DNA of 64,000 bases from the NCBI GenBank assembly GCA_951812955.1, contig OX638340.1:2208001-2272000 (forward strand), given 5' to 3'. The translations under genes were made by a program, and so were the position numbers. Positions 4,431 through 50,787 of this stretch are shown in pieces; position 1 is the stretch's first letter; each line of letters begins with the position of its first letter. The notes under the pieces were generated by a model. It saw nothing but the letters and a program-made list of their open reading frames with translations. It had not been told where the DNA came from and searched no databases. Origin of the DNA: an uncultured Gemmatimonadota bacterium (GTDB lineage: Bacteria > JAAXHH01).

Positions 4431-4588
4431 TAGCCCTTTGACAGAATCCGTGGAGACATTAGATATTATCGATTGGATCAAATAAAGGGCGGAACGCGCT
4501 CCGGGCAAGGGATTTATGGTGTGAAAGCCGCCGCGTGAAAGGGTGGTTTCCCGCTGCCCATTCGAAGCCAGACACCAAGGAATCCGGT

Positions 4589-6096: not shown

Positions 6097-6098
6097 AT

Positions 6099-6235
6099 GC
6101 GGCTGAGCAAGCAGGCAACGGACCCCGCGTGGATGAGCACGGCCTGGCGCTTCTGAACGCGACCGGACGCGGCTGAGCAAGCAGGCAACGGACACTGAGC
6201 GACCTGGCTCTTCTGGACGCGGTCCGGCGCGACGG
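6099..6235. repeat. imperfect ~70-bp tandem duplication (2 copies), intergenic
   Basis: CGCGGCTGAGCAAGCAGGCAACGGA occurs at 6099-6122 and again at 6168-6192. The following segments CTGGCGCTTCTGAACGCGACCGGACGCG and CTGGCTCTTCTGGACGCGGTCCGGCGCG are also paralogous. Confidence 0.7.
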
Positions 6236-6282
6236 TGGCGATTGAAAACGGATCAGCTCTCAACCCCTGGGAGGACGGCAAC

Positions 6283-6822: not shown

Positions 6823-6850
6823 TCCGCCGTAATCCAAGGAGTGCTTTTCT

Positions 6851-10730: not shown

Positions 10731-10763
10731 CGGCGCGTCCGACGCGGTCCGAGCCGACTGGCG

Positions 10764-27236: not shown

Positions 27237-28376
27237 CTAAGCCGCCATTTCCTTGCCCTGAGCTTCCCTTATGCACTCCGCGAGAATGGGTATGCCATCG
27301 CGGATATCCTCAATCGTGGGGAAACCGTACGCGATGCGCAGGTAGGGAATATCCTCTCCCAGGGCGCTGAATCCCTGCCCCGGCGTGTAGTAGACGTCGC
27401 GGCTTGCCGCCAGTTGGTGGGCCTTGCGCGTGTCCGTCGCCGATGGGATCCGTACCCACACGAACATGCCGCCGGGCGGATCCGTCCACCAGACCTCATC
27501 GCCCAACGCGCCGAAGTGGGCCTCCAGCGATTCGACGACCGCGTCCTTGCGCGCTTTCATGACGCGGTTCACTTCTGCGATGTGGTCCCATAGATGCTCG
27601 CCGAAGTATTCCGCTACGATCATGCTCGCCAGGGCGTTCGTCCCTCCGTCCATCTTGTTGGCCATGATCCGCTGCTGCAACGCCTCCGGGGCCATGAAAT
27701 AACCCTGCCTCACGCCTGGTCCGAGTATCTTGGAGAAAGAACCGACGTAAACGACCCGTTCGTCTTCGTCCAGATGATACAGGTTCGGCGGCACCGGATC
27801 GGACTGGAACACGATGTCCCCGTAGCAGTGGTCGTCCACGACCGGCGTATCAAACTCGCGAGCCAATTCGAGCAGGCGTTCCCGCCGTTCCAGCGGCATG
27901 ATAGAGCCCGTTGGATTGTGATGGGTGGGGATGGTGTAGATGAACTTCGGCGGCGTTCCCGCGTCGACAAGACCCTGCAATACGGTCTCCAGTTCGTCCG
28001 TGACCAGTCCCTGTTCGTCGAGCGGCGCAGGCACGATGCGCACCTGCCTGCTGCGAAACACACTCAACGAGCCGCCGTAAGAAAAGGATTCCGTGACGAT
28101 CGTGTCTCCGGGTGACGCGAAGGCGTCCGTGATCAACTGCAGCGCCTGCATCGAACCAGAGGTTAAAACGATCTCTTCCAGGGGCACCGCTCGTCCAGTG
28201 CCGCGCGCGAATCGCTGCGAAGCGATGGCTCTCAACGGTTCGTATCCCCGGCCGTCCGGGTAGTTTACCAGTTCCGAGCCGCGTGCGGCAATGACCTTTG
28301 CCGCGGCCTCGGCCAGCGCATCTGACGGGAAGGACAGGGGGTCGGGCCGTCCGGCGCCTAGATTGATCTCACGCAT
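27237..28376 (-). CDS. PLP-dependent aminotransferase, class I/II
   Basis: 379 aa. Schiff-base lysine context SFSKILGPGVR and the HNPTG motif. Confidence 0.8.
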   Translation of the reverse strand: MREINLGAGRPDPLSFPSDALAEAAAKVIAARGSELVNYPDGRGYEPLRAIASQRFARGTGRAVPLEEIVLTSGSMQALQLITDAFASPGDTIVTESFSYGGSLSVFRSRQVRIVPAPLDEQGLVTDELETVLQGLVDAGTPPKFIYTIPTHHNPTGSIMPLERRERLLELAREFDTPVVDDHCYGDIVFQSDPVPPNLYHLDEDERVVYVGSFSKILGPGVRQGYFMAPEALQQRIMANKMDGGTNALASMIVAEYFGEHLWDHIAEVNRVMKARKDAVVESLEAHFGALGDEVWWTDPPGGMFVWVRIPSATDTRKAHQLAASRDVYYTPGQGFSALGEDIPYLRIAYGFPTIEDIRDGIPILAECIREAQGKEMAA

Positions 28377-28507
28377 CGATTTGCTCCTGCAGAACTTGGA
28401 TGTATTAGTATCGGTTTTTTGCTGCTAAATACAATCAGGATATCTCACCAACTAGATGGTGTTACAGTCTCAGTGTTTAATGGTAATGGAGAACTGCACT
28501 GTCTTTG

Positions 28508-29152
28508 TCACCTACGTGATCGCGATGGTACTGAACAATGATCATCCAATATTTTAACAAGAGACATACAAACACTTCTCATCTGACTAATCGCACTACT
28601 TATCTCTGATCGAGTATATCTGCGTCCGATATTCTCCGGTGGTTCTCGACCATGGGCAATAGCATTTCTGTGTGCGACCACTTCGTCTATTCGATTTCTA
28701 TGTTTTCGTCGGCGTACAGGCATCCGCCGAATACCAAAAACCCCAAAAATAAATCGCAGATGCGAGTATCTATAATGTGTTCCGTCGGTAGGTGGTTTGA
28801 TATTACTGGACAGATCAGGCTTTTGATCTGAAAATGCACGTTCAAATACTTTAACTCGATTTAACCATTCCTTACTTCGCGACCCGTCCCGCAATGATTT
28901 CAATTCTGGATCCAAGTAAATAGCCATTAGTGTAGGCAACAGATCTTTCATCATGTGTTTGTGGTTTTTAATCGCTTCTACTGCCCCAATCACTGCGTTA
29001 TTCACAGTGTATTCGTAGACAGCGTAAGTCTGCACAAACAAAAGCCCCTTGGCAACGACTGCTTGGTGTTCTTCCAGCTTCCTTGTCGCCTTCCAAAATT
29101 GCTCAATTGATAAAAACCGAGTTTCAATTTCTGTCTTAAGTGCTGGGAACAT
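28508..29152 (-). CDS. HEPN-domain protein (MAE_28990/MAE_18760-like), predicted RNase partner of DUF262
   Basis: 214 aa. Rx4H HEPN motif in VVAHRNAIAHGREP. Overlaps the upstream DUF262 gene by 17 nt. Lies in the AT-rich islet. Confidence 0.55.
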   Translation of the reverse strand: MFPALKTEIETRFLSIEQFWKATRKLEEHQAVVAKGLLFVQTYAVYEYTVNNAVIGAVEAIKNHKHMMKDLLPTLMAIYLDPELKSLRDGSRSKEWLNRVKVFERAFSDQKPDLSSNIKPPTDGTHYRYSHLRFIFGVFGIRRMPVRRRKHRNRIDEVVAHRNAIAHGREPPENIGRRYTRSEISSAISQMRSVCMSLVKILDDHCSVPSRSRR

Positions 29153-30215
29153 ACACTCTTCCTAAGAATCGATCTCGGCAGAACTCTATACGACCCTTCA
29201 CAGCTCTCAAACTATTTGTCGCGCCTGTGGTGAATCCTCTGAGTTCGTCCGAGTTCATCCAAGTAGAAATGTCTGTTGTGTCCAGTTTAGCATGTTCTTT
29301 TAATGCTAGTGATGCTCCTACGGCTATTGCCTCATAGAGATTCAATGGCGTTAAGCCCTTCCGACCAGGACGCCTTATACCTTCTGGGAAAGTTTGGGCT
29401 AGTTTTTGAAAAACCGTTCGAAACTCTTTTTCTTTGGTAATGTAGTCAAAGTGATTGCTCGCATCCTTCATGTAATCCGTTAAAAACTCCTCAACACTGT
29501 GTTCAAAGTTATTGTATCGATCCAAATACGCAAAATAACGAAGCACACATTCTTCTAAAGTTCCATCATTCCTGTTTCCTTTTGAAAGTTTTACGACCTT
29601 TTGGAAGTCATCAGTTTTTGCCAACTCATCTAGTTTGTCAGCAAACTTTCCTTGGTACACGCAGTCCCGTATTTCTTGGTTCGTTAGCAAAACACCGCCG
29701 GTGTTCAAGCGCTCAAAAAGATCAAACCGTATTACTTTGTCACTCTTATCGTTCAGGGTAACAACTCTTAAAGGTCTAGTCTTCACATGTTGTTGAATTG
29801 TTGTAGGAAAGGTACCATATGTCAAATTGTTGAAATTACTTAGTTTCTTCAGCCCTTTTAATACTAGCTTCTCACCCAAGCCAAATTGATTACGCAGTTC
29901 TTCATCGCCAGCAAACTTGACTATTGCACTCAAACGTTGAACTCCATCAACAGCTTCCCACGTGAAATCGTCATTTGTTGCCATAAAAAGATTGGGAATC
30001 GGTATTCCAAGCATGAGCGATTCTACGAGTCGAGAACAGCGTTCATCATTCCAGCGAAATTGCCGTTGGTATGAAGGTGCAACTGATATCTGTCCTTCCT
30101 TTAGCATGCTCAATAGTTCTTGGAGTTGGATGTCGAAAGTATCGAAATCCACTGTTCGTCGTTGAGTTGCCAGTTGATCAGTAAGGTCTTGCGGTATTTC
30201 GATAGGAATTTGCAC
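29136..30215 (-). CDS. DUF262 (ParB-like nuclease/NTPase domain, GmrSD N-terminal-type) protein
   Basis: 359 aa. DUF262 signatures APSYQRQFRW and AVDGVQRL (DGxQR). There is no C-terminal DUF1524/HNH half as in full GmrSD. Confidence 0.65.
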   Translation of the reverse strand: MQIPIEIPQDLTDQLATQRRTVDFDTFDIQLQELLSMLKEGQISVAPSYQRQFRWNDERCSRLVESLMLGIPIPNLFMATNDDFTWEAVDGVQRLSAIVKFAGDEELRNQFGLGEKLVLKGLKKLSNFNNLTYGTFPTTIQQHVKTRPLRVVTLNDKSDKVIRFDLFERLNTGGVLLTNQEIRDCVYQGKFADKLDELAKTDDFQKVVKLSKGNRNDGTLEECVLRYFAYLDRYNNFEHSVEEFLTDYMKDASNHFDYITKEKEFRTVFQKLAQTFPEGIRRPGRKGLTPLNLYEAIAVGASLALKEHAKLDTTDISTWMNSDELRGFTTGATNSLRAVKGRIEFCRDRFLGRVYVPST

Positions 30216-30706
30216 TTCACCCTCCTACGATCCGGCTTTCAATCAAGTTCCGATTAGCGAGACAATCTTGTTACGAACCAAGATGATAAAGGCTGCCAGT
30301 GCTAGTTAAACTCTAACATGTTCTTGGTAGGTAAAATATGCGCTAATAAGCCTCTCTGATTTGCCAATCTCATAAACTCATATACTTAAGCCGTAGAATT
30401 GCTAATGTGAATTATGTGTGAAACTGTGCAAGATTGAGGTACTCGATTACCGTGTAAGTTTTGGACGACACGGTGCCAGTTGGTTCATTCTCCTACAGTT
30501 ACTACAAATGCCGTGTAACTCGACCAGACAGCCAATGTAGAGCGGCCTTCCCATGCCTGTCAACCGCTTATGCACGGACGCGGGGCGTCTTCAACCGTAT
30601 ACGAGGCGCATTCAGCCGGATAAGTGGGCGCCGTTGACAGGATGCATGACCCTTTCTACATTGGTCCTACCGGTACCAGCAACTGAATCTCTCCATCATA
30701 TCGCCC

Positions 30707-33082
30707 ATGATCTCACACCGATTCATCCCCCTGCTCGCCACAATTGTTACGTGCGCGTCGTTCCAGACCGTTGCGCCCGTCACCCATGCGCAGGACCAGC
30801 CACCGGGTCAGCTGCAATCCAAGCGCCCGATTCGCGTCGAAGTCCCGCTCTTCGAGGGCGGCCAGGGGCTGGAGTTCTTCCTCGAGTGCGCCCGGACCTA
30901 TGAACAGGAGCATGAGGGCGTAGTGATCGACCTCTACGGCGATCCCCGCATACACGACAAGGTGCGGGTGCGCATCCTTGAACGCTCCTTCCCCGAGGTC
31001 ACAAACGCCCGCCTGAACTACTGGGCGCTCATCCGCAACGGCGACCTGCTGCCCTTGGACGAGTTTCTCGACCAGCCCAACTGGGAAGGGGACCGTACCT
31101 GGCGCGAATCGTTCCTGCCCGGTACGCTGACCCAGTACACGCATGAGGGTAAGACCTATGGCGTTCCCCTGATGGCGTCGGCCTACGCGGTGTGGTACAA
31201 CAAGAGCCTCTTCGAAGAACACGGCTGGCAACCGGCGACCACCTGGGAAGAGTTCTTTGCGCTTTGCGAAGAGATCAAGGCCGCCGGCATGTGGCCGCTC
31301 GCCTTCCAGGGCCGTTACCCGGGCTACGTGCAGGCCGTGATCGACCACGCATACTACCACCTGGCAGGACCGGAAAGGTACTTCGACCAGAAGAACCTGG
31401 TACGCGGCAGTTTTGACAATCCCGAATTCGTCGAGTCCCTGTCCCTTGCGCAGCAAATCGCACTCAACTTTTTCCAGCCGGGCGCCATGGGCATGAGCCA
31501 CACCGAATCGCAGCTCGAGTTCTTCCTGGGCCACACGGCCATGATCTTCTGCGGTTCGTGGCTCAAGAGCGAGATGCTGGGCAAGATACCGGACGGTTTC
31601 CGCCTGGGCTCCTTCAACCTGCCGGTAGCGCCTACCGGCAAGGCGGATCCATCGGCCGTTTACGGCGGGTCCGGGTACTATTTCGTCATGAAGGACAGCG
31701 ACAACCCGCTGGCCGGGGTCGAGTTCCTGCGCTTCATGACCTCCCGGCGCATGGCCGGCCGCTTCGCCCGGATGCGCGACATCCCCGTGTCCGTGGCCGG
31801 CGTATCCGAAGAGAACCTGTCGGAAGACATGGCCGACCTGGCGGCCATGCTGAAAGACGCGGCCGTCACTTACGGTACGCCGCCCGGGGAAGGCTATCCG
31901 GCTATGACGCAGTACTGGACCGACGCGCGCTTCCGCGTCATAACCGGACAAACCACGCCAGCCGAAGCCGCGGCGGAACTGGAAACCGCGGCGGCCGTGG
32001 TCCTGCGCCAGACCGTATCCCCGGACGAGATCAACATCCGGCACGTATGGAAGCCCGTCCTGCTGATCGGTCTCATGGCTCTGGCGGTGGTCTACTGGTC
32101 GGCCACGACCTACAGGCACTACCGGGAACGCAGGCGCGCCGGAATCAGCACCACGGAGGGCCGTCCCTTTCTTCGCCGGACCGACCGGATCATCCTCATC
32201 GCGCCCGCCCTCGTGCTTTACACGGTGTTCGTGATCATTCCGAGCGCGAAATCGTTCCTCTGGAGCCTGAACGAGTGGGATGGGCTGACTGAAATGCGTT
32301 ACACGGGCCTGCTCAACTTCGGCCGCCTGCTCTTCGAAAGCGACGGATTCTGGATCGCGCTGAACAACAACCTGTTCATCATGTTCGTAATCCCGCTGTT
32401 CGTCATCCCGATTTCTCTCTTCCTGGCCGTATGCATCAGCCGAGAGATCTGGGGGTCGCGATTCTTTCGCATCGCCTTCTTCTTCCCGAACATTCTCGGT
32501 GCCGTGGCCGCCACGCTCCTCTGGATGCACCTCTACAATCCCCAGGGCGGTCCGATAAACACGGCGCTGGTGGGCATCGGGGTGATCCTGTCCGCGGCCG
32601 GTCTGGAAACCGCGGGAAGCTGGCTGCAGGCCATGGAAGGATTCGCCTGGCTGTCGCAGTCCAACCTGTACTGGGCGCTGATCCCCATGTCCATCTGGGG
32701 CGCGTGCGGGTTCAACATGATCCTCTTCCTGGCCGCCATGGAGAGCATTCCCCAGAGTCTCTACGAAGCGGCGGATATCGACGGCGCATCGTCGTGGCGG
32801 CAGTTCTGGACCATCACCCTGCCCCTGATCTGGGAGGTGCTATCCATCTCCATCGTTTTCATGGTCATCGGCGGAATGAAGGTCTTCGAGTCCATATGGC
32901 TTTTGACCAACCAGTCGCCGACCACGCAGGTGCACGTCATCGGCACGCTCATGGTGCAGGACATGTTTACCGAGTTCAAGATCGGCGAAGCCACGGCCAT
33001 CGCCGTACTGCTGTTCATCATGGTCTTTTTCGGAACGGCCGCCACGTTGAGACTCATGCGGAGGGAAACGGTGGAATTCTGA
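30707..33082 (+). CDS. fusion of ABC (CUT1-type) extracellular solute-binding protein and ABC permease
   Basis: 791 aa. Signal peptide; ~430-aa sugar-SBP-like domain; an extra TM helix VLLIGLMALAVVYWSATTY; then a MalF/UgpA-type permease domain with the EAA loop YEAADIDGASSWRQFWTITLP. Confidence 0.7.
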   Translation: MISHRFIPLLATIVTCASFQTVAPVTHAQDQPPGQLQSKRPIRVEVPLFEGGQGLEFFLECARTYEQEHEGVVIDLYGDPRIHDKVRVRILERSFPEVTNARLNYWALIRNGDLLPLDEFLDQPNWEGDRTWRESFLPGTLTQYTHEGKTYGVPLMASAYAVWYNKSLFEEHGWQPATTWEEFFALCEEIKAAGMWPLAFQGRYPGYVQAVIDHAYYHLAGPERYFDQKNLVRGSFDNPEFVESLSLAQQIALNFFQPGAMGMSHTESQLEFFLGHTAMIFCGSWLKSEMLGKIPDGFRLGSFNLPVAPTGKADPSAVYGGSGYYFVMKDSDNPLAGVEFLRFMTSRRMAGRFARMRDIPVSVAGVSEENLSEDMADLAAMLKDAAVTYGTPPGEGYPAMTQYWTDARFRVITGQTTPAEAAAELETAAAVVLRQTVSPDEINIRHVWKPVLLIGLMALAVVYWSATTYRHYRERRRAGISTTEGRPFLRRTDRIILIAPALVLYTVFVIIPSAKSFLWSLNEWDGLTEMRYTGLLNFGRLLFESDGFWIALNNNLFIMFVIPLFVIPISLFLAVCISREIWGSRFFRIAFFFPNILGAVAATLLWMHLYNPQGGPINTALVGIGVILSAAGLETAGSWLQAMEGFAWLSQSNLYWALIPMSIWGACGFNMILFLAAMESIPQSLYEAADIDGASSWRQFWTITLPLIWEVLSISIVFMVIGGMKVFESIWLLTNQSPTTQVHVIGTLMVQDMFTEFKIGEATAIAVLLFIMVFFGTAATLRLMRRETVEF

Positions 33083-34118: not shown

Positions 34119-35717
34119 ATGGATCCATCAACGCGTCTGAGGACCAGGGATTGGCAGATCATGCCACACGATTCACAGCCAACAGACACGATCTGGTACT
34201 GCATTCGGCGAAATGGCATCGCGAAAGATGAAGGCTGGATCGGCGATGTCACGCTGGATGACTTGCCGAATCAGGTGGGCGTTGAACCGGGTGATACGTT
34301 CGAAGTTTGTATCGCTTCAGACTTTCAAACTGTACCGCCTGACCAGATATCCAGCTTCTTCTACAACCGGGACCGCGGGATTGTCGGCTTGGAGATGGCT
34401 TACGGTGATGAGACCTTGCGAATCGCGCCTACTCGAATGATCGCAGCGAATCTCGGGTTTGCCCGGGCCATGGAGAGATTCCGTCAACAGTTAAACATAA
34501 GCGCTGACGAATTCGCCACCAACGGCAGGCTGCGTGTTTTTTCCGCCAGGCAGGTCCTGGTACCGGGCGGAAGCATACCTGACCGAATGGAACTACATCG
34601 TGGATCAACACTCGTGACCGAGGCTCCGTCGGATGGCAGGGACCGAGCTGAGGTGCTGGCCTGTGGAATTAGTCGGTGGATGCTTCGAAATATGTCCGAG
34701 GATGGCGCGTTGCCCTACAAATACTGGCCTAGCCGGGGTAAAGAATCTCCGGCCGATAACGCCATTCGCCGGTTTCTTGCATCCCTGGCCCTTGAACGTC
34801 ACGGTAGATATTTCGATGACAAAGAAATTCGTGAGGCGGCCCGGCGCAACCTGGGCTTCAATCTGAAGCGGAATTTCAGGGTCATCGGCGGTGGAATAGG
34901 CGCCATAGTGGAACCAACAGGAGCGAAGCTTGGTGCGGCGGCGCTGGCCGCTTTGTGTATACTGGAGAGCCCGGCATTCAGTGATTTCAAGACCGAGTAC
35001 GACATGCTGACCGCTGGTGTGAACTCACTTGCGGATAAGGAAATGGGATTTCGTACATTCTTCTTTCCACCCGAACGCGACGGAGAAAACTGGAATTTCT
35101 ATTCGGGGGAAGCACTACTGTTCTGGGCCGAGGCCATGCGCCATGGCGCGCCGGGTGCCCCTACGCTGGAACGCTGCGCCGAGACTTTTGATAAGTGCCG
35201 GGAACGGCATTTTCGGGCACGGAACCCCGCTTTCGTTCCGTGGCATATACAGGCCTGCACATCCCTGTTCAAACAAACAAGGCGGCGTGAGTTCGTCGAT
35301 TTTGTGTTTGAGATCAGCGACTGGCTACTACCAATGCAGCAGTGGGACGGAATGTTGCCGGACCTTCGCGGTCGGTTCTACAATCCAAAACGACCGGATT
35401 TTGGACCGCCACACGCGGCTTCCACCGGAGCCTACCTCGAAGGTCTTGCGGACGCCTCGATGTTGGCGCAAATGGTAGGAGACTGTCCCCGTGCCAAAGC
35501 ATACCAACGAGTCGTAAACCGTGGGCTGCGTTCTCTACGTCAACTGCAGTTCCGCGATGCCTGCGACACTTTCTATATTTCAAAGAAACACCGTGTCATG
35601 GGCGCGATCCGTACGGAAGCCTACGACAATTCAGTTCGAGTCGACTCGGCAGCGCACGCCCTGATCGCGGCAGTAAAATGGCTGAAATCAGGACGTACTC
35701 ATTCGGTCGGCGCGTAG
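34119..35717 (+). CDS. hypothetical protein, possibly (alpha/alpha)6-barrel glycoside-hydrolase/epimerase-like; last gene of the ABC uptake operon
   Basis: 532 aa. Weak resemblance of the C-terminal ~370 aa to six-hairpin enzymes (FYSGEALLFWAEAM, ASTGAYLEGLADA). Assignment is uncertain. Confidence 0.35.
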   Translation: MDPSTRLRTRDWQIMPHDSQPTDTIWYCIRRNGIAKDEGWIGDVTLDDLPNQVGVEPGDTFEVCIASDFQTVPPDQISSFFYNRDRGIVGLEMAYGDETLRIAPTRMIAANLGFARAMERFRQQLNISADEFATNGRLRVFSARQVLVPGGSIPDRMELHRGSTLVTEAPSDGRDRAEVLACGISRWMLRNMSEDGALPYKYWPSRGKESPADNAIRRFLASLALERHGRYFDDKEIREAARRNLGFNLKRNFRVIGGGIGAIVEPTGAKLGAAALAALCILESPAFSDFKTEYDMLTAGVNSLADKEMGFRTFFFPPERDGENWNFYSGEALLFWAEAMRHGAPGAPTLERCAETFDKCRERHFRARNPAFVPWHIQACTSLFKQTRRREFVDFVFEISDWLLPMQQWDGMLPDLRGRFYNPKRPDFGPPHAASTGAYLEGLADASMLAQMVGDCPRAKAYQRVVNRGLRSLRQLQFRDACDTFYISKKHRVMGAIRTEAYDNSVRVDSAAHALIAAVKWLKSGRTHSVGA

Positions 35718-36334
35718 ATGTAGTGCCCGCGTCCTTTCTCCGGCAGCACGTCGAAAATCAAGTGCACCCGTGGTTCGTTTGTCGGGTTTCTCGCTTCGTG
35801 CAGCGCCTTGTTGTCGAACACCCACAGCTCGCCTTCCCGCATCACTATGGTTTCACCTTCTGCGGTCATTGGACTCCCCTCCGGGCTCCTCAGCACAAGG
35901 TGGTATCGATCACGTATTCGGTAGTAAGCGCCGGCGTCGGTATGAGGTCGAACCCACCCCTGAGGTTGCAAGGATACCAGTGTAGCGCGTCCAAGTACAC
36001 CCCGATGAAGCGTGGCGATCTCTTTACAGAACGCCAGCGTTCGGGGGAATTTTCTAGCAGTAGCAGTAGTGCGACTGTCATGGACGTCGTTGGCGTTTTT
36101 CGCTCCTGGAGGCAGTGGTTTTTTAGCGGTACGCAGAAAGATATTTTGGGTGTCGCGTTGACAACGAACCTTGCGTTGCCGACTGGTATCGGCGAGCCAA
36201 AGATCTGGTACTGTGTCCAATTCCAGCATTAGCGGTTCAATATCGATGCCCGTCGCGATCCGGGTGAAACGCTTACCTGCCGGTGACACATCATTTGATT
36301 CTTTACCGGGAATCACATCGGTCTTGTGTATCAC
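35699..36334 (-). CDS. aspartyl/asparaginyl beta-hydroxylase family (AspH/LpxO/CinX-type) Fe(II)/2OG oxygenase, soluble
   Basis: 211 aa. Family core GWVRPHTDAGAYYRIRDRYHLVL...GETIVMREGELWVFDNKALHEARN...RVHLIFDV, matching HxxPHxD...RLRxHLxL...FDDSFEHEAxN of AspH/LpxO. No membrane anchor. Confidence 0.7.
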   Translation of the reverse strand: MIHKTDVIPGKESNDVSPAGKRFTRIATGIDIEPLMLELDTVPDLWLADTSRQRKVRCQRDTQNIFLRTAKKPLPPGAKNANDVHDSRTTATARKFPRTLAFCKEIATLHRGVLGRATLVSLQPQGWVRPHTDAGAYYRIRDRYHLVLRSPEGSPMTAEGETIVMREGELWVFDNKALHEARNPTNEPRVHLIFDVLPEKGRGHYIYAPTE

Positions 36335-36469
36335 AAACGACCACCCTTACCGCCATATGCCAATGGGATTGATCAGCACCATCTCAGTATTCAACACAAG
36401 TAGTTACGTATGCTGGAGCCAGCTCAACAGGCCAGAAAGTACACGTTCGGTTAATCGAACAGCCATGAA

Positions 36470-37483
36470 TCAGTCGTCATCGTCGTCATCTTTATCATCG
36501 TCGTCATCGTCATCGTCGTCATCGTCGTCATCATCATCGCCGTCGCCATCCCCGTCACCATCCCCGTCGCCATCGCCATCGCCATCGCCGTCACCATCGC
36601 CGTCGCCATCCCCGTCTCCATCACCATCACCGTCGCCATCTCCATCACCATCGCCGTCACCGTCGCCATCCCCATCGCCGTCCCCATCTCCATCGCCGTC
36701 GCCGTTACCTCCAGAGTTCCCACTGGGCGGTGGACTTAACTCTTCATCGCCGTCGCCATCCCCATCGCCGTCTCCATCACCACTGGGCGGTGGACTTAAC
36801 ACTTCGTCACCGTCGCCATCCCCGTCGCCATCCCCGTCTCCATCACCGTCGCCATCCCCGTCTCCATCACCGTCGCCATCGCCATCCCCATCGCCATCGC
36901 CATCACCGTCGCCATCGCCATCCCCATCGCCATCGCCGTCACCATCCCCATCACCATCACCGTCGCCATCACCGTCGCCATCCCCGTCCCCATCTCCGTC
37001 GCCATCCCCGGCCCCGTCCCCATCGCCATCGCCGTCACCATCGCCGTCGCCATCCCCGTCTCCATCACCGTCCCCATCACCGTCGCCATCCCCGTCCCCA
37101 TCACCATCACCGTCACCATCGCCGTCACCGTCACCATCGCCGTCCCCATCGCCACCATTTGAACTTGTGGTATTTGTTACCACACTTGCGTTGTCCTCGT
37201 TATTGCTACCTGCATCCCCGTTCCCATCCCCATTTCCGTTCCTATCTCCATTTCCGTCACCATCTCCATCTCCATCGCCATCTCCGTCCCCGTCGCCGTC
37301 CCCATCGCCGCTGCCACCCGGACTCTGAGCACTCCCCACCTGATTCGCACTCGTGGCGAATCCAGACCCTGATCCCATGGGGTTCAGATCGTTGTCCCCT
37401 CTGCAACCCAGGATCATGAGCAACGAAGCGACAGTCAGTTGCATTCTTCGCAACCATTGCATAATGGTTCGGCACAAGGCCAT
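36470..37483 (-). CDS. predicted lipoprotein composed almost entirely of (Gly-Asp)n dipeptide repeats, ending in poly-Asp
   Basis: 337 aa. N-terminus MALCRTIMQWLRRMQLTVASLLMILGC (signal plus lipobox-like ILGC). Then GDGDGD... for most of its length, with two EVLSPPPSG / EELSPPPSG spacers and a ~20-residue Asp tail. Wobble asymmetry supports this strand: the Asp codons are always GAY while the Gly codons use all four third bases. Confidence 0.6.
   Translation of the reverse strand: MALCRTIMQWLRRMQLTVASLLMILGCRGDNDLNPMGSGSGFATSANQVGSAQSPGGSGDGDGDGDGDGDGDGDGDGNGDRNGNGDGNGDAGSNNEDNASVVTNTTSSNGGDGDGDGDGDGDGDGDGDGDGDGDGDGDGDGDGDGDGDGDGDGDGDGAGDGDGDGDGDGDGDGDGDGDGDGDGDGDGDGDGDGDGDGDGDGDGDGDGDGDGDGDGDGDGDGDGDGDEVLSPPPSGDGDGDGDGDGDEELSPPPSGNSGGNGDGDGDGDGDGDGDGDGDGDGDGDGDGDGDGDGDGDGDGDGDGDGDGDGDGDGDGDDDDDDDDDDDDDDDKDDDDDD
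36480..37320. repeat. ~840-bp hexanucleotide-periodic microsatellite-like repeat (GGN GAY)n with all six frames open
   Basis: Plus strand reads (TCN CCR)n = SPSPSP. Minus strand reads GDGDGD. The ORF track shows overlapping ORFs in every frame across this interval. A 27-bp element CCACTGGGCGGTGGACTTAAC(T/A)CTTC occurs twice inside. Confidence 0.85.
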
Positions 37484-44089: not shown

Positions 44090-45034
44090 ATGCCACCTAT
44101 GCTTGACGAATTGGTTGGATGTATCGATGAACTTAAAGATCGTATTTCCAAATACCGAAACTCACTAAATGAGAACGAAACTCGTACTCGAATGCAGTTA
44201 ATAGATCCGCTGCTTCGTGTGCTGGGCTGGGACGTCTCCGATCCACGGTACGTTATCCCAGAATTCAAGGTGTCCGATGGTTGGGCTGACTATGCCTTAT
44301 TGCGGGATGATGGTAAGCCTGCTGCTATGGTGGAAGCTAAAAAACTGGACGAACCGTTAAAGCCCGCACACCGTGCTCAGATGTTGAAATACGCAATTGA
44401 GTTGGGTATCCCATACACTGGTTTGACAGATGGAAATCACTGGGAGTTGTACAATGTTTTCCAACCGGTACCTATGGAGGACAAACAGATCTTGGATGTT
44501 ACTTTATTGGATTCCCACTCCCACGAAAGTGCACTAAAGTTACTGCTGCTCTGGAATCCAAATCTAGACGCCGGCAGCGCGGTGAAAGCAAATGAACCTG
44601 TTCTCGTCGACACTCAGAATGGCGGTTCGATTCCTCCAATAATCGTTCCGCCACCATCGAACTGGAAGGCACTTTCAGATTACGAACCACCAGCAGGAAC
44701 ACCCGCACCTAAGGCTATTAGGCTTTGGGATGACTCAGAAAGAGAAGTGCATCATTGGTATGAAATTCTCACCATAGTAGCCGAAAAGCTCTACAACGAA
44801 AATGTCCTTACATTGGAACATATACCGATTCAATGGGCTAAAAAGACCTATAGTATTCACTCTCAACCAGTACATCCGACCGGCAACAAGTTTGAAAATC
44901 ATAAAGAAATCGGTAACTCGGGATTGTTCGTAAACGTAAATTTAAATACCGGTCAAGTACGAAATAACACCCGGAATCTACTGAAGAAATACAACATTGG
45001 TACAGAGAAGGTTTACCTCAAGGTAGCCGATTAG
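44090..45034 (+). CDS. HsdR_N-like PD-(D/E)xK nuclease-domain protein with uncharacterised C-terminal domain
   Basis: 314 aa. N-terminal NENETRTRMQLIDPLLRVLGW ... DYALLRDDGKPAAMVEAKKL is the type-I-restriction R-subunit N-terminal nuclease signature (D...EAK). The C-terminal ~160 aa match nothing I recognise. Confidence 0.55.
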   Translation: MPPMLDELVGCIDELKDRISKYRNSLNENETRTRMQLIDPLLRVLGWDVSDPRYVIPEFKVSDGWADYALLRDDGKPAAMVEAKKLDEPLKPAHRAQMLKYAIELGIPYTGLTDGNHWELYNVFQPVPMEDKQILDVTLLDSHSHESALKLLLLWNPNLDAGSAVKANEPVLVDTQNGGSIPPIIVPPPSNWKALSDYEPPAGTPAPKAIRLWDDSEREVHHWYEILTIVAEKLYNENVLTLEHIPIQWAKKTYSIHSQPVHPTGNKFENHKEIGNSGLFVNVNLNTGQVRNNTRNLLKKYNIGTEKVYLKVAD

Positions 45035-45444
45035 GTAGTTTCGTTGACCTACCATGTTGAGGAGTGATATTTCTTGATCTCCACAGACAAGGTTAAGGGT
45101 AAACCACAGCATACCTCCTCACTATCAGGCACGGTTCCTCAGTACGTTGAAGCGATATCAGCAACTCGCTAGCTAGCAGCTACCTGCCCCGTCGCATGGA
45201 ATACTGGGTACAAACCGTCTTTCACTTTAGTGGCGATTTGTTCACGGCTCCGTTCGTCAAATACAATTGAGCCCACTAATTCCACCTGTTTACCTCGACA
45301 AACAAGAGTACAGATCAATCACTTCGTATGACAAAACTCATTCAACTTCTATTCGAAATTGGAATCGGTGACCACCACTCAACCTCTGAATCGTGTGAGA
45401 CTGATGAAGATTCGCTGGTACATGGAAAGGATAATGGAGTGTAA

Positions 45445-47622
45445 TTGATGAATTCAACGTCTGAAGAAACCACCACCCGTCCCTGTTGGTTTGTGGGCGC
45501 CAGTTATTCTGGTACGGGCGATCAAACTGAGCGATTTCTCACGGAAGGTATCTGGGAGAACGGCTTCGACAACGATCATCCGGCCGTCGCGATGACCAAA
45601 ACCATTCAGCCCGGAGACCCAATCGCGATCAAGTCCGCCTACGTTCGCAAACACGACCTACCTTTTGACAGTCGCAACCAGTTCGTATCCGTAATGGCGA
45701 TCAAGGCCATCGGGACGGTTTTAGAGAACATCGGTGATGGCCATACCGTTAAGGTTAAATGGAATAAGGAGGTAACTCCGCGAGAATGGTATTTCTTTAC
45801 TAACAGAGGTACAGTTTGGAAAGTATCGCCTGGTAGTGACTGGTATTCCGACGCCCTGATCGGATTCGCGTTCGAGAACAAGCCGCAGGATATCGATCGT
45901 TTCTTAAAAGTGCCGTATTGGAGGGAGAGGTATCGAGGAGACACGCTCAATGATCAACGGTTTGCGTGGACGAGGTTCTACGAGGCCTTTGCGGATAAGC
46001 TGCTCACATATAGGAACAAGCGCTTAGACTTAATAAATGGTATACAAGAAATAGCTGCCAGAGAGTATGCCATGTTGGTTCTGAGGGATCAGTTTCGGGA
46101 CGGTACGATCGGTCCACTCAAAGACATATGCCCATTTACTACCATCGGATTGTTCAATAAGGGAATAACGAATAGCAATCGAAGATCAATTGCATCAGAA
46201 CTCGCTGAATTGCTGGGAGTGTCAGAGTCGGTTCCGGATTCATTCGATGGAATACCTGTTCTCAACAATCAGAATTCCTGGTTTTTTTCGTATGAAAAAA
46301 ACCGACGACCGGAAGATATTGAAATCCTTTGGAATGTTTACTCCCGTGCAATTGCCTTCGCTGATTCAGATGATTCCGATGCGCGATCTGCTTTCGTCTC
46401 TGCTTACGACGACGCATCCGAGGTTTCTCACGTAGGTTGGAAACTTACATTTGGGCTGTATTGGATACGGCCTTGGGATTTCCCCGTCCTCGACACGAAT
46501 ACCCGGCGTTACCTGGACAAGAAACTCAATATTGAGATCGGACTAAATGGACCGAAAAGGGGATACTGTAGTGCGAACGACTACCTGACGGTCCATGACA
46601 CACTTGAAAAGAGGTTTCTGGAGGACACATATCCGGTTCGTTCTTTTCCAGAACTAGCACGCGAAGCCTGGTTGTATAAGCCCGGTGACCCGGATCCCCC
46701 GCCAGATAGCGGTCTGGATCCCCCGCCACCACCTGTCCCTTATTCACTCGATGATATCGTGAAAGACGGCTGTTTCATTGCCAGAGATAAACTCGAGTCG
46801 ATACTCAATCGACTCCGTACCAAGAAAAACCTCATTCTACAAGGCCCTCCAGGAACCGGGAAGACTTGGCTCGCCAGGAAGTTGGCCTACGCTTTGATCT
46901 GTGAGCGAGACGAAAGCAAGGTTCGTTCGGTACAGTTCCATCCCAATCTCTCTTACGAAGATTTCGTACGTGGTTGGCGGCCGGCGGGAGATGGTAAACT
47001 TACGCTCGTAGATGGCCCCTTCATCGCCATAAGGGACGAGGCCGAAAAAGATCCTACTACTCGATACGTCTTGGTCATCGAAGAGATCAACCGGGGCAAT
47101 CCCGCACAGATTTTCGGCGAGATGCTGACATTGTTGGAGACCGACAAGCGAACTCCAGACGAAGCCTTGGAATTGGTTTATTCAAAGACTCCGGATGAGC
47201 GATTCTTTGTTCCTAACAATCTGTTTGTCATCGGGACGATGAACATTGCTGATCGTTCACTGGCACTTGTAGACCTGGCATTACGCCGTAGATTTGCATT
47301 TATCGATCTGGAACCTACCCTTGGCAAGACTTGGCGAGACTGGGTCCATTCTAAAAACGGGATAGATAACGAGACTCTCACCGAAATTGAGCATCGTATA
47401 GATGATCTGAACCGGACGATCTCCAATGATTCCGGTCTTGGCTCGCAATTTCGCTTGGGGCACAGTTATGTGACGCCGCCGTTTGAACAGCCGATTAAAG
47501 ATGGGAGAAAGTGGTACAGGGAAGTCGTTGAAACGGAAATTGGACCACTACTCGACGAATACTGGTTCGAAGACCTCGCGAAATCTAGAAACGCAAAAAA
47601 GAAACTTTTGGATGGTTTTTAG
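45445..47622 (+). CDS. mcrB: McrB-family GTPase (AAA+), with ~440-aa uncharacterised N-terminal region
   Basis: 725 aa. Walker A LILQGPPGTGKTW. McrB signature VLVIEEINRGNPAQIFGEMLTLLE. FVIGTMNIADRS. Confidence 0.85.
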   Translation: MMNSTSEETTTRPCWFVGASYSGTGDQTERFLTEGIWENGFDNDHPAVAMTKTIQPGDPIAIKSAYVRKHDLPFDSRNQFVSVMAIKAIGTVLENIGDGHTVKVKWNKEVTPREWYFFTNRGTVWKVSPGSDWYSDALIGFAFENKPQDIDRFLKVPYWRERYRGDTLNDQRFAWTRFYEAFADKLLTYRNKRLDLINGIQEIAAREYAMLVLRDQFRDGTIGPLKDICPFTTIGLFNKGITNSNRRSIASELAELLGVSESVPDSFDGIPVLNNQNSWFFSYEKNRRPEDIEILWNVYSRAIAFADSDDSDARSAFVSAYDDASEVSHVGWKLTFGLYWIRPWDFPVLDTNTRRYLDKKLNIEIGLNGPKRGYCSANDYLTVHDTLEKRFLEDTYPVRSFPELAREAWLYKPGDPDPPPDSGLDPPPPPVPYSLDDIVKDGCFIARDKLESILNRLRTKKNLILQGPPGTGKTWLARKLAYALICERDESKVRSVQFHPNLSYEDFVRGWRPAGDGKLTLVDGPFIAIRDEAEKDPTTRYVLVIEEINRGNPAQIFGEMLTLLETDKRTPDEALELVYSKTPDERFFVPNNLFVIGTMNIADRSLALVDLALRRRFAFIDLEPTLGKTWRDWVHSKNGIDNETLTEIEHRIDDLNRTISNDSGLGSQFRLGHSYVTPPFEQPIKDGRKWYREVVETEIGPLLDEYWFEDLAKSRNAKKKLLDGF

Positions 47623-48743
47623 TGGTGAATGGCCCAGTAGTTAGTACGGCTGACGAGACGATCGAACAGGCCGGGTATATCGGTCGTATCCCTTTACGAA
47701 ATATCTGGCTGCTCATGCTTTACGCCTCTGACCTTTTCAGGCAACTTGATGCGTCTGAATACCGCTCCTTCGAAGATAATCCTGATGACCTGCCCGATCT
47801 GGTTGCCGAGATCCTATCACATGAAGTCGAACGTCGACTAAAGCGAAATCTGAGTTACGGCTACCAATACCGTAACGAAGTGCTCGGACGGGTTCGCGGA
47901 CGTATCGACCTTTTACAAACCGAAGCTCATCAACTACTGCAACGCGGCATGGTCGCCTGTCGATTCGACGAACTGACAATCGACACACCGAGGAACAGGT
48001 ACGTTCGATCCGCCCTCGAGATGATATCCAAATATGTTCGTCGAAAAGACCTGGCTCACCAGTGCAGGTCCCTCGTTGGAAGCCTTAGGCGACAGGGAGT
48101 CGTTGGAGAACGACCTGGGCGTGAGGTGACGTCAGTTGAGCGATACGGTAGACATGACGCTGTTGACCGCAAGATGGTGGATGCGGCTCGTCTTGCCTTC
48201 GAAATGGCCATTCCGACCGAGCAGACCGGTTCCAGGCACCTTCCACTACCGGACCGTGATATAAACTGGATTCGCAGACTCTATGAGAAAGGCGTTGCAG
48301 GATTCTATGATGTGGTACTTTCCAGAAGGGGATGGAATGTGTATCCGGGAACGATTCTCAGATGGCCCACGACAGTCAGAAGTCCGCGAATAGACGGGAT
48401 ACTACCCTCCATGCGGACCGATATTGTGTTGGATCATGTTGACGAAGGCCGACGGATCGTTATAGACACGAAATTCAACTCGGTTTTGTCGAGAGGTTGG
48501 TATCGAAATGAAGGGATACGAAGCGGATACATGTACCAGATCTATGCTTACCTTAGGTCGCAGGAAGAGAGTGGTGATCCGCTTGATTGTAATGCAGAGG
48601 GAATGTTTCTCCATCCGTCGGTTGGTGAGATGTTCAACGAATGGGTAGATATTCAGGGTCATCGGATCCACTTCAATACCGTTGATCTCGCAACCGATAC
48701 ACAGACCATCAGATCGCAGTTGTTGGATGCGGTGAAACCTTAA
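47622..48743 (+). CDS. mcrC: McrC-family PD-(D/E)xK nuclease subunit
   Basis: 373 aa. GTG start overlaps the mcrB stop by 1 nt. C-terminal nuclease region DIVLDHVDEGRRIVIDTKFN. Confidence 0.75.
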   Translation: MVNGPVVSTADETIEQAGYIGRIPLRNIWLLMLYASDLFRQLDASEYRSFEDNPDDLPDLVAEILSHEVERRLKRNLSYGYQYRNEVLGRVRGRIDLLQTEAHQLLQRGMVACRFDELTIDTPRNRYVRSALEMISKYVRRKDLAHQCRSLVGSLRRQGVVGERPGREVTSVERYGRHDAVDRKMVDAARLAFEMAIPTEQTGSRHLPLPDRDINWIRRLYEKGVAGFYDVVLSRRGWNVYPGTILRWPTTVRSPRIDGILPSMRTDIVLDHVDEGRRIVIDTKFNSVLSRGWYRNEGIRSGYMYQIYAYLRSQEESGDPLDCNAEGMFLHPSVGEMFNEWVDIQGHRIHFNTVDLATDTQTIRSQLLDAVKP

Positions 48744-48834
48744 ACTGACTTTGCTCTCGACATAGTCGTTCCACCAGCCCATTTCCCGCATCCGTTTGGT
48801 GTGTTCGGCAGCTTCGGTAATCTCAAGATTTGAC

Positions 48835-49761
48835 TCACCCCGCCTTCCTGAAGACCTCGAAACGACGGTCCAGCCGGTCCTGGTCCGGATGGTCACGGGT
48901 GCGTGAAGGCAGGTGCAGTCCCGATCCGTCCAGTTGCTTGAGGGCCTGGAGCATGGGACCGTCATCCTTGTCCAGCAGGCGGTCGGATACGTGCAGCCGG
49001 TAGTCGGGATCAATGCCGATCAGGTGGGCGTCAAAGGCCGCATGATGAATCTTGGACAGGGCCAAGCCGTTGGGTACGACGGGTTGTCCCAATGCCTCGT
49101 CGCCATCGGCAATGATGTGGGCGGCATCCAGTAACTGCGTTTCCGGTAGGCCGGTAATGGCACAGCGGCCGCGATAGGCGTGAAGGACAGCCTCGCGGAA
49201 CGTGGCTTGGTGGAGTCGTTCCTTGACCATGCGCAGGGCATACCGCCGCTCTACCGCGTTAATCGGAGCTTCCATCTCGGCCTGGTTGGGGTTCCCAAAG
49301 GCAAGCGTGGACTTGAGCGCGAATCCATCCCAATTGGAGATGAAGGTGGGAATGATCGCCTGATACCGGCTGGGAGACACACCGAGAAAGTAGATCACGG
49401 GAATCTGATTCTCCCAGGCAACCTTTAACCACTGGTTGTCTGCTGCTGCCGGGTCCTGTCCCATGAAGGCGTAGTCCACGGAATCGTTGCCCTCGAAAAT
49501 CTGGCTGTGGACCTGCTTTTGGTCGTCGTACCAGACTCGGCCGCCCGGTCTGGGGTACACGGTCCTGATCGAGAGAAGGTACCGCATCCGGCGCGGCTTG
49601 AATATGCCCCGCTGCGGATTGACAAGGGGGATCCTTTCGCCTTCGAATACGAACCCCGGCGCCAGTTCGTCCCTCGTAAGGTGGCCATGGGTTTCACTCA
49701 GCCGCCGCACGTGATCGAACGCGGCCATCCGCATCCTCGGATCTCGGTCGTCGACGTTCAT
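48835..49761 (-). CDS. HNH endonuclease with N-terminal putative DNA-reader domain
   Basis: 308 aa. C-terminal HNH_2-type motif LLDAAHIIADGDEALGQPVVPNGLALSKIHHAAFD. The N-terminal ~200 aa are uncharacterised. Confidence 0.6.
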   Translation of the reverse strand: MNVDDRDPRMRMAAFDHVRRLSETHGHLTRDELAPGFVFEGERIPLVNPQRGIFKPRRMRYLLSIRTVYPRPGGRVWYDDQKQVHSQIFEGNDSVDYAFMGQDPAAADNQWLKVAWENQIPVIYFLGVSPSRYQAIIPTFISNWDGFALKSTLAFGNPNQAEMEAPINAVERRYALRMVKERLHQATFREAVLHAYRGRCAITGLPETQLLDAAHIIADGDEALGQPVVPNGLALSKIHHAAFDAHLIGIDPDYRLHVSDRLLDKDDGPMLQALKQLDGSGLHLPSRTRDHPDQDRLDRRFEVFRKAG

Positions 49762-49770
49762 CTCAGTCCT

Positions 49771-50787
49771 TTACCCCCGGTAAATCCTCTCATTGTGCCA
49801 GGATAGTACTTCGGTGGACGGCTGGTCCACCGCATTCCTGGGAACGACAATCTGTTTCCCGTGCAAAGAGTAGTAATCGCGCCCGTTCTCGAATTCCTCC
49901 CGGACCTGTCCGCTGACCTCGAAGTGCAATTCAGGGGTCACCGTTACGTATCCGGAATCGAACAGCCCGTGGATGTCGCGCCTTAGCAGCAGTCCGTTCC
50001 TGGCTTCGTGGATGCCCCCTTCGCTGTAGGGACGGATGTGCGCGGCATCAAGGGCCGGCAGCGTCCGTTCGCGGGTAACTGCGCAACGGCGGTCGTAAAG
50101 GTCGGTTACCAGGGCCCTGAAAGCACCTTGACCGAGACGCGGTTTGACCAGTTGCGGTTTGCCGTAAAGGGTTTGCCCGGCCAGGAGGCCTGAGGGTTCG
50201 GCCACGATGCCGGCAGGATTTGCAGATACACTGGTTGGCTGTCGGAATTCCAAACGGCCGTTGACTGCGTCCCACAATGCCCGTCCGTCTGAGTCACCGG
50301 TACTAAATGTCTTTAGTGACACGATGTTCGGCGACCATGTCGACGGCACATCGACAAACTCGGATGCCTCGAAGAAGAAGGGTTGGGTAAGGATCCGGCA
50401 GCCAATCTTGTAATCGCTCGGCTCACGTGGGTCAACATTACGGTAACGTGAGATACGATTTCGCATTTCCTGCAATGTCTCGGCACCGTTGGCTTCCCCG
50501 AATGCTTCCCATGCAAGGGAACAAGGCATCACATTGGCATAGGCAAAAACGCCGCCGCCAACGATTACGTTGTACGGCGCGTGTAGCTTGAAGAGGAACA
50601 GTTCACCGGGCTGAAGTGCCTTGAAGTTCGTGCCAGAAGGCGCCCAGAAGTTGACCTCCTCCAGGTGCGGCTTCTGCCGGAGAGTCTTGAACCAGTCCCC
50701 GTCGGTCACGGCAACGACCAGCTTGATGTCCATAGCGCGAATTCCGGTAAACTTTGGTGCTATTGGGATACAGGCAGATCCGATCAA
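49771..50787 (-). CDS. HNH endonuclease with N-terminal PUA-like (EVE/ASCH-type) domain
   Basis: 338 aa (start possibly the internal Met at 50733). N-terminus WFKTLRQKPHLEEVNFWAPSGTNFKALQPGELFLFKLHAPYNVIVGGGVF resembles the EVE/PUA-like pattern. C-terminal HNH ALDAAHIRPYSEGGIHEARNGLLLRRDIHGLFD. Paralogous to the neighbouring gene. Confidence 0.6.
   Translation of the reverse strand: MIGSACIPIAPKFTGIRAMDIKLVVAVTDGDWFKTLRQKPHLEEVNFWAPSGTNFKALQPGELFLFKLHAPYNVIVGGGVFAYANVMPCSLAWEAFGEANGAETLQEMRNRISRYRNVDPREPSDYKIGCRILTQPFFFEASEFVDVPSTWSPNIVSLKTFSTGDSDGRALWDAVNGRLEFRQPTSVSANPAGIVAEPSGLLAGQTLYGKPQLVKPRLGQGAFRALVTDLYDRRCAVTRERTLPALDAAHIRPYSEGGIHEARNGLLLRRDIHGLFDSGYVTVTPELHFEVSGQVREEFENGRDYYSLHGKQIVVPRNAVDQPSTEVLSWHNERIYRG

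Follow-up and report, generated by a model that had tools for sequence, protein, structure and literature searches.

A conserved gene cassette links (Gly-Asp)n arrays of exported proteins to an Fe(II)/2-oxoglutarate oxygenase and an orphan toroid protein: a candidate system for aspartate modification

What might an enzyme of the Asp/Asn beta-hydroxylase family be doing next to a lipoprotein that consists largely of Gly-Asp (GD) dipeptides? The question is raised by a locus in a stretch of 64,000 nucleotides (nt) from an uncultured Gemmatimonadota bacterium (contig OX638340.1, positions 2,208,001 to 2,272,000; hereafter the window), where a preliminary description, made from the sequence alone, had noticed the two genes side by side and proposed that they form a functional pair. 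The pairing recurs in other genomes and, in some, the two parts are fused; the pair, however, turns out to be a trio, with a third gene on the opposite strand that the description had missed. Taken together, the evidence makes it fairly probable that the locus is a conserved three-gene module, comprising an exported GD-array protein, an Fe(II)/2-oxoglutarate (2OG) oxygenase and a protein with a predicted toroid fold, in which the aspartates of the array would be modified.

The first gene (36470-37483, minus strand) encodes a protein of 337 amino acids that include 126 Asp and 120 Gly residues. Its assignment rests on the open reading frame (ORF), on composition and codon usage, and on the presence of an equivalent gene in 39 of 41 related loci, which were collected by their close oxygenase homologues in a scan of one genome per species. 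The N-terminus MALCRTIMQWLRRMQLTVASLLMILGC, with Arg residues in the n-region, matches a PROSITE-style lipobox pattern (signal peptide at 37403-37483, lipobox LMILGC, Cys at residue 27), and the same layout recurs in at least 20 related loci; moreover, a motif that follows the lipobox cysteine, C-x-[DG]-D-x-[DE]-P-x-x-P-T-A-P, is common to the homologues from Acidobacteriota and Gemmatimonadota. The array region (residues 59-316; 36536-37309) is made up of five GD blocks of 9, 23, 34, 6 and 28 dipeptides, an Asn/Ser-rich interruption and two spacers of the form E[VE]LSPPPSG, namely EVLSPPPSG and EELSPPPSG (36779-36805 and 36719-36745), and the protein ends in a polyAsp tail, D15-K-D6 (36473-36535). 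With 104 GD dipeptides in all, the lipobox, the more than 100 repeats, the two spacers and the Asp-rich end that had been read off the minus strand are borne out. Every array Asp precedes a Gly, and the mature protein has a net charge of about -127. A polyAsp tail follows the array in most of the related loci, although not in all. The matches of this protein to the TrAA12 model of Pfam and to MSCRAMM models of NCBIfam are compositional, involve low-complexity linkers and fall far below the cutoffs where cutoffs apply, and were accordingly rejected. In the 135-nt spacer that separates the gene from the oxygenase gene (36335-36469), a weak 6-bp hairpin with a T-rich tract (36444-36461, minus strand) lies right after the stop codon; this match in a consensus scan, which carries no evidence of function in itself, could reduce read-through into the oxygenase gene.

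Low-complexity sequence of this kind invites the suspicion that the wrong strand is being read, and the preliminary description had answered it with the third bases of the codons. Part of that argument does not hold: that Asp codons end only in C or T is circular by itself, since GD was the very definition of the arrays. The strand and frame are upheld on other grounds. Across the 41 related loci, not one GAR (Glu) codon interrupts the arrays in approximately 2,300 Asp codons, the interruptions seen being GN, GH, GA, VD and WD; because GAR would be silent for Pro in the complementary Ser-Pro frame, its absence points to selection on the Gly-Asp frame. The third base of Gly, in contrast, takes all four letters within the arrays (C42/G23/A11/T24), and all eight GGN-GAY hexamers are present. 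Furthermore, the signal peptide and the conserved motif after the cysteine exist in the GD frame only. The plus-strand Ser-Pro frame is open for 385 codons (36171-37328), antisense to the GD gene and running on antisense into the oxygenase gene, and its Pro codons lack C and T at the third base; it is a shadow ORF and not a gene. Both Ser-Pro coding and a non-coding microsatellite are ruled out by the codon evidence together with the conserved lipoprotein N-terminus.

In a related strain (L170, 96% nucleotide identity), the gene holds 117 GD dipeptides, arranged in blocks of 10, 10, 54 and 39, and the polyAsp tail is longer; everything stays in frame, and these differences indicate that the array grows and shrinks under coding constraint. 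The public gene calls for the same strain (5539-6986) give the oxygenase as a protein of 56 amino acids and the GD gene as two fragments, and in a Gemmobacter locus (L168, 4935-7835, plus strand) the public call is the antisense 'AIAVAIAV' frame, annotated as an 844-amino acid protein. The cassette has probably been overlooked because gene callers pick the antisense frame or fragment the repeat genes.

The second gene (35699-36334, minus strand) begins 135 nt downstream of the GD gene on the same strand and encodes a soluble Fe(II)/2OG oxygenase of 211 amino acids that belongs to the Asp/Asn beta-hydroxylase family (PF05118, Asp_Arg_Hydrox; residues 86-196, E=1.7e-22, 80.4 bits against a gathering score of 22.6), with the motifs quoted in the preliminary description in place. 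Among 30 homologues H131-x-D133, H179 and R189 are invariant, so that the iron-binding triad and the 2OG-binding Arg are intact, and a basic N-terminal segment (residues 49-85), DTSRQRKVRCQRDTQNIFLR..KKPLPPGA.NANDVH, is likewise invariant. Homologues number 604 at the limit of detection, and the best 120 share 65-92% identity with the window protein, the isoelectric point (pI) of which is about 9.4. The structure model is a double-stranded beta-helix whose nearest neighbours are proline hydroxylases, followed by AspH; sequence comparison gives the same ranking, with free L-proline hydroxylases as the closest solved structures. By homology, therefore, the enzyme falls in the AspH/proline-hydroxylase branch of the 2OG oxygenases, which does not by itself fix the substrate.

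Could the enzyme nevertheless be a lipid hydroxylase of the LpxO or OlsC type that happens to stand beside a coincidental repeat, or a repeat that is merely a non-coding or Ser-Pro microsatellite? Such a reading could draw on weak NCBIfam matches to LpxO and OlsC, which are, like CinX and DurX (the Asp15 hydroxylases of lanthipeptide pathways), bacterial members of PF05118, and on the length of the plus-strand Ser-Pro ORF. The LpxO match, however, reaches 28.8 bits where the cutoff is 500, and the OlsC match 16 bits where it is 450, and neither the sequence nor the model of the 211-residue protein contains a hydrophobic segment that could serve as a membrane anchor, in agreement with the earlier view of a short, soluble enzyme distinct from LpxO. 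Given also the codon evidence, the signal peptide and motif confined to the GD frame, and the linkage of the two genes in 39 of 41 loci, we find this explanation hardly credible. A lanthipeptide context of the CinX/DurX kind is likewise lacking, in that no lanthipeptide genes were found near the window cassette, around which lie genes for an ATP-binding cassette (ABC) transporter, a ferredoxin, an epimerase and an aldehyde dehydrogenase.

The linkage itself extends over several phyla. The 41 loci come from Gemmatimonadota, Acidobacteriota (Vicinamibacteria, Thermoanaerobaculia and Bryobacterales), Gammaproteobacteria and Alphaproteobacteria, and in 39 of them an array of at least five GD dipeptides adjoins the oxygenase gene, with 13 to 143 GD dipeptides per ORF. 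Almost without exception, the array ORF lies directly upstream of the oxygenase gene in the same orientation; two loci have it divergent, and in one the distance is 2.9 kb. As for the two exceptions, a DDE-type (insertion sequence-type) transposase gene (4558-5619) occupies the usual position of the GD gene in L007, and this insertion probably explains the missing array; L006 has a different lipoprotein, which starts LGCGGDGDS. No further GD array was found in approximately 450 kb of sequence flanking the 41 loci.

The proteins that carry the arrays are diverse. They are plain lipoproteins in the clade of the window and in Vicinamibacteria, RTX proteins without a signal peptide in Gammaproteobacteria (HemolysinCabind, E=2.7e-44), and lipoproteins with a weak TbpB-like C-terminal barrel in Alphaproteobacteria; other carriers have a lectin-like domain, or large N-terminal domains with a Pro-rich segment, the GD array and polyAsp after them, and those of Kiloniellales and of the cultured Algihabitans albus contain an S8 subtilase domain (2.7e-28). 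In A. albus ac2 (L041) the cassette is complete, and its S8 protein includes both GD and polyAsp. Since these carriers are unrelated, it is the array, and not a particular carrier, that is linked to the oxygenase. All of them are predicted to be exported, by different routes. The cassette proteins share 65-75% identity across Gemmatimonadota, Acidobacteriota and Proteobacteria, and the neighbor-joining trees of the oxygenase and of the third protein are broadly congruent, clustering by class with the phyla interleaved, a pattern that fits a cassette inherited as a unit with old horizontal transfers. Additional conserved neighbours beyond the trio were sought and rejected, the ferredoxin, epimerase and ABC transporter genes being lineage-specific. 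Seven loci, drawn from two phyla (Gammaproteobacteria and Vicinamibacteria), have a bacterioferritin gene close to the cassette (L009, L016, L023, L031 and L038, approximately 2.4 kb downstream of the oxygenase gene, and L029 and L030), which we take as a weak hint towards iron.

The third gene (34119-35717, plus strand) is convergent with the oxygenase gene, with which it overlaps by 19 nt at the 3' end. It is present in 42 of 42 loci and is convergent wherever the layout was read. The product, a basic orphan protein of 532 amino acids, has 854 homologues, all of which are annotated as 'hypothetical' and none of which has a Pfam domain, despite 62-73% identity across phyla. For the window protein there is no Pfam match even at E<=10, and no NCBIfam or Protein Data Bank (PDB) sequence match even when a profile is used, so that neither Pfam, NCBIfam nor PDB places it by sequence in a named family or reveals known catalytic residues; nor does any curated Pfam or NCBIfam model cover the protein. 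The AlphaFold2 model (predicted local distance difference test score 69) consists of an N-terminal beta domain (approximately residues 25-160) and an (alpha/alpha)6 toroid (approximately residues 176-523), the fold of the six-hairpin (alpha/alpha)6 glycosidase/epimerase superfamily, although identity to the structural matches is only 7-15%. The toroid protein lacks a signal peptide, has a median pI of 9.5 and a net charge of about +11, and contains a conserved Cys/His pattern, C353-x6-C360-x3-H364...H376-x3-C380, which may be a metal site.

Fusions provide an independent view of how the three parts belong together. In ten loci of the Thermoanaerobaculia type (L012, L013, L015, L017, L021, L022, L026, L027, L032 and L040), the lipobox, the GD array, the polyAsp tail, a conserved linker, PPWQFVAFAPAA, and the oxygenase follow one another in a single frame with no stop codon. 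The linker, with the consensus DPS[ST]PPWQF[VM]AF[AV]PAA, lies approximately 150 nt upstream of the oxygenase match, and its nucleotide differences are mostly synonymous, which indicates that it is translated; its hydrophobic part, 11-13 residues, is too short to be called a transmembrane segment. A separate internal start for the oxygenase was considered and rejected: there is an in-frame ATG in some of these loci and a GTG in others, yet no stop separates the parts. A different fusion (L172, P0412) joins two oxygenase domains to a toroid domain and is convergent to a gene for a 618-amino acid protein with approximately 50 GD repeats. Within it (368-3265), the first PF05118 copy apparently lacks the distal iron-binding His (NKCPYEEGN), whereas the second keeps it (NKAVHDAFN), which suggests one catalytic and one degenerate domain. 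Because of these independent fusions and of gene adjacency, the three cassette parts are linked pairwise.

The same observations bear on whether the array is the substrate at all. The oxygenase, with or without the toroid protein, might take a small molecule, for instance a free amino acid, as its substrate, with the GD protein serving as a cation sink, scaffold or regulator, and both the structural closeness to free L-proline hydroxylases and the inclusion of lipid and small-molecule hydroxylases in PF05118 are in keeping with that. We consider this improbable in view of the in-frame fusion of the oxygenase to a GD-polyAsp protein, of a linkage that follows the array whatever the carrier, and of the complementary charges of two basic enzymes and a strongly acidic partner; moreover, the conserved part of the cassette includes neither a transporter gene nor any further biosynthetic gene.

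If the array is the substrate, as we infer, a closely comparable reaction is already on record. SmaO, an Fe(II)/2OG enzyme from a gene cluster for a peptide made by ribosomes and modified post-translationally (RiPP), beta-hydroxylates both Asp residues of a DGDG sequence, depends on the Gly that comes next and accepts neither Glu nor Asn (PMC12186529; Kim et al., JACS 2025). In this graspetide-type cluster, the hydroxylation opens a cascade that converts Asp to aminomalonate, a partner enzyme, SmaX, processes the product, and SmaO-SmaX fusions occur (PMC12186529). The parallels with the present cassette are several: an oxygenase gene beside the gene for the candidate substrate, a second enzyme, fusions of the oxygenase to the partner (here the toroid protein), and an Asp-Gly target motif that the GD arrays, with their lack of Glu, provide. 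The differences are equally clear, in that SmaO works on a short leader-plus-core peptide in which two Asp residues are modified, whereas the substrate here would be an array of a hundred repeats in an exported protein; SmaX is an HD-domain enzyme (PF20680/PF13328), whereas the partner here shows no HD match and has an (alpha/alpha)6 toroid fold; and there is no gene for an ATP-grasp enzyme or a peptidase-containing ABC transporter (PCAT) in the neighbourhood of the window cassette. Thus, dedicated Fe/2OG hydroxylation of an Asp encoded by a neighbouring gene is already known, and it is the orphan third component that could make the present system more novel.

We accordingly favour a scheme in which the oxygenase and the toroid protein would jointly act on the GD array while it is still unfolded and has not left the cytoplasm, the oxygenase beta-hydroxylating Asp where Gly comes next. 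The GD lipoprotein would afterwards be exported and lipid-anchored, so that a long, flexible, polyanionic chain rich in alpha-hydroxy-carboxylate might be displayed at the cell surface and bind cations such as Ca2+ and Fe3+. The preliminary description had supported such a role with the statement that beta-hydroxy-Asp binds Ca2+ strongly, as in EGF domains, which is overstated: hydroxylation is not required for Ca2+ binding by calcium-binding EGF domains, and beta-hydroxy-Asp is best known as an Fe(III) chelator in marine siderophores. The (DG)n sequence itself amounts to a run of overlapping DxDxDG calcium-loop motifs.

The siderophore connection also raises a more distant alternative, namely that the GD protein is a RiPP-like precursor that is hydroxylated and then cut into secreted, siderophore-like chelators of the form (hydroxy-Asp-Gly)n. 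The SmaO precedent is itself a RiPP, and the bacterioferritin neighbours noted above would be compatible with a link to iron. No protease, PCAT transporter, leader or GG motif is conserved in the cassette, however, and the arrays sit in large functional exported proteins (RTX, S8 protease and two-partner secretion proteins), which favours a protein-borne module; on this evidence we regard precursor processing as very improbable.

The proposal that the cassette hydroxylates an array before export has to be set against four observations that weigh on the other side. First, the oxygenase domain of the Thermoanaerobaculia fusions comes after a lipoprotein signal, which is hard to square with a cytoplasmic enzyme; this arrangement implies either export of the enzyme, as with AspH in the lumen of the endoplasmic reticulum (ER), or modification prior to export. 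Second, the association is far from general when approached from the repeats. A reverse scan of metagenomes of the Joint Genome Institute for (GGNGAY)10 yielded 120 loci with a median of 14 repeats, of which only 34 had at least 2.5 kb of downstream sequence, and cassette genes accompanied the two longest arrays alone, namely L111 (102 GD), where the cassette is complete, and L107 (approximately 60 GD), with a toroid gene, 33% identical and cut by the contig end, directly downstream. The 118 loci without cassette genes thus indicate that short GD linkers occur widely and do not depend on the cassette. Third, four of nine distant toroid contexts have long GD arrays, while the flanks that were analysed contain no PF05118 gene. 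Besides L107, these are Gemmobacter sp. 24YEA27 (L168), with 149 GD in an adhesin of the type I secretion system type directly upstream of the toroid gene; Nordella sp. HKS 07 (L164), with 104 GD 3.3 kb from the toroid gene and a PGA_cap gene between them; and a Tara contig (L165), with a two-partner secretion exoprotein that contains GD repeats near the toroid gene. Hydroxylation may therefore be an accessory step. Fourth, a Sulfitobacter plasmid encodes an oxygenase, 43% identical to that of the window, that has neither a GD neighbour nor the basic motif, so that the GD-linked oxygenase clade begins between 43% and 53% identity. In the Nordella locus, the GD protein (9917-11578, minus strand) has no obvious signal peptide, and its approximately 100 GD repeats are followed by a second low-complexity module, approximately 300 residues of GGKGGGE[SG]GGS-type repeats.

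Does the toroid protein, then, define the system? An exhaustive profile search puts the toroid family at 1,884 representatives at E<=1e-3, 447 of them at E<=1e-30. Among 19 unusually long members, seven have PF05118 domains, in either order, four a Mur-ligase domain, two a RimK-like ATP-grasp domain, one a PGA_cap (CapA) domain, and one a methyltransferase together with an FAD oxidase domain (P0367, P0382, P0402, P0456, P0414, P0445, P0497 and P0387 for the fusions other than those to PF05118). In addition, a Mur ligase gene adjoins the toroid gene in Thioclava, as a PGA_cap gene does in Nordella, and a plasmid search found homologues, distant ones only, on Thioclava and Rhizobium plasmids. 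The toroid protein could accordingly be the primary enzyme or handler of GD arrays, with the oxygenase a lineage-specific accessory, interchangeable with ATP-grasp, Mur-type ligase or CapA-type partners, and with a defining modification other than hydroxylation. Apart from the breadth of the family, its fusions and these neighbours, the arrays that stand beside distant toroid genes without PF05118 speak for this idea. Against that, five of the nine distant toroid contexts have no GD array, and the oxygenase shows the same invariance as the toroid protein within the clade of the window; we judge the idea unlikely, and it is in any case compatible with Asp hydroxylation in the present cassette and not exclusive of it.

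The fusions also permit a wider formulation of the favoured module. They suggest a theme shared with the building or decorating of acidic polymers, as performed by cyanophycin synthetase, by PgsB and CapA in poly-gamma-glutamate synthesis and by RimK, and hint at wider systems that act on such polymers. We tentatively raise the possibility, which we hold to be on balance doubtful, that the (Gly-Asp)n arrays of secreted proteins, 50-150 repeats long, become a new protein-borne polyanionic polymer through the toroid protein and interchangeable partners. Equally tentatively, the product might be regarded as a ribosomal counterpart of cyanophycin or poly-gamma-glutamate, made with a hydroxylase here and with ATP-grasp enzymes, Mur-type ligases or CapA elsewhere; and, with the same reserve, the hydroxylase version might have moved between phyla with a host-associated niche in common. 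The differences from the established systems are considerable: the backbone here is ribosomal, the cassette contains no ligase, and the link runs through domain fusions in distant members only.

Further points of comparison come from better-known proteins. Human AspH has a two-His iron site, in contrast to the HxD...H site of the 211-residue soluble oxygenase described here. AspH is anchored in the ER membrane and recognizes a disulfide-defined EGF fold via its tetratricopeptide repeat domain (PMC6817910), whereas the presumed substrate of the cassette enzyme is a disordered dipeptide repeat. An analogy in overall design is offered by proteins that carry a long dipeptide-repeat stalk, portable over different adhesins, as the GD arrays are over different carriers. 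In the staphylococcal Ser-Asp repeat proteins (Clf/Sdr), the stalk is modified by dedicated glycosyltransferases, SdgA and SdgB, that are encoded nearby. Here, too, the differences are substantial, the staphylococcal modification being O-GlcNAc on Ser as opposed to a presumed hydroxylation of Asp, with different enzymes, anchoring and organisms; the NCBIfam matches of the GD array to SD regions are by composition only and below cutoffs, and do not indicate homology. Acidic calcium-binding and biomineralization proteins, with DxDxDG loops, RTX repeats or the composition of Aspein and Asprich, form another point of reference, as does the surface lipoprotein LbpB, whose anionic loops protect against cationic peptides. 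The overlap of (DG)n with DxDxDG, the RTX repeats of the gammaproteobacterial carriers and the weak TbpB-like barrel of the alphaproteobacterial ones recall these proteins, none of which, to our knowledge, needs a dedicated hydroxylase or a toroid partner.

The ecological setting may be informative with respect to function. The names of several of the metagenome-assembled genomes (MAGs) that carry the cassette point to sponge and coral holobiont bins: the APA_bin genomes are bins from the sponge Aplysina aerophoba, and the Plut, RHO1, jk18x and p16x bins we take to be from Porites lutea, Rhopaloeides and Ircinia. With many carriers among such MAGs, the cassette is a candidate determinant of life in calcium-rich animal tissue, for which cation or iron capture, control of mineral nucleation and protection against cationic host peptides are candidate routes. 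The steroid gene clusters of Ircinia sponge symbionts, reported to be horizontally transferred, were considered in this connection and represent a different cassette.

The literature in PMC and bioRxiv yielded no description of a GD-repeat protein paired to a hydroxylase and none of the toroid family, in line with the initial impression that no system of this kind had been described. Should the array Asp residues be hydroxylated, the cassette would represent the first bacterial mass beta-hydroxylation of a structural or surface protein, the known bacterial cases each affecting no more than one or two residues of a peptide natural product, and it would supply a substrate rule for a clade of function-less 'aspartyl/asparaginyl beta-hydroxylase domain-containing proteins'. 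The third gene opens an unannotated family of at least 1,884 sequence clusters that the fusions tie to enzymes of acidic residues. Poly(hydroxy-Asp-Gly) chains would, furthermore, be of interest as chelating or anti-scaling biopolymers.

Scans of the window for Rfam families and tRNAs found nothing. Outside the cassette, two regions of low GC content contain genes of defense systems. The first (27377-30706; GC 0.46), between aminotransferase and ABC transporter genes, includes an ORF for a GmrSD-type restriction endonuclease (29136-30215; PF03235, E=2.3e-24), and the 96%-identical strain L170 has only approximately 250 nt at this position, which marks the stretch as a strain-specific defense island. 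The second (44090-50787; GC 0.47-0.49) contains a McrBC-type system, with an AAA_5 protein (45445-47622) and a McrC-like protein (47622-48743). An HSDR_N-like ORF lies there as well, as do two genes for HNH_2 endonucleases (48835-49761 and 49771-50787). Adjacent to the first region, a 791-codon ORF (30707-33082) encodes a domain for extracellular solute binding (SBP_bac_1, residues 64-347) fused to a domain of ABC permeases (BPD_transp_1, residues 567-774), an unusual architecture that is also called in L170 and is followed in the window by a second permease gene.

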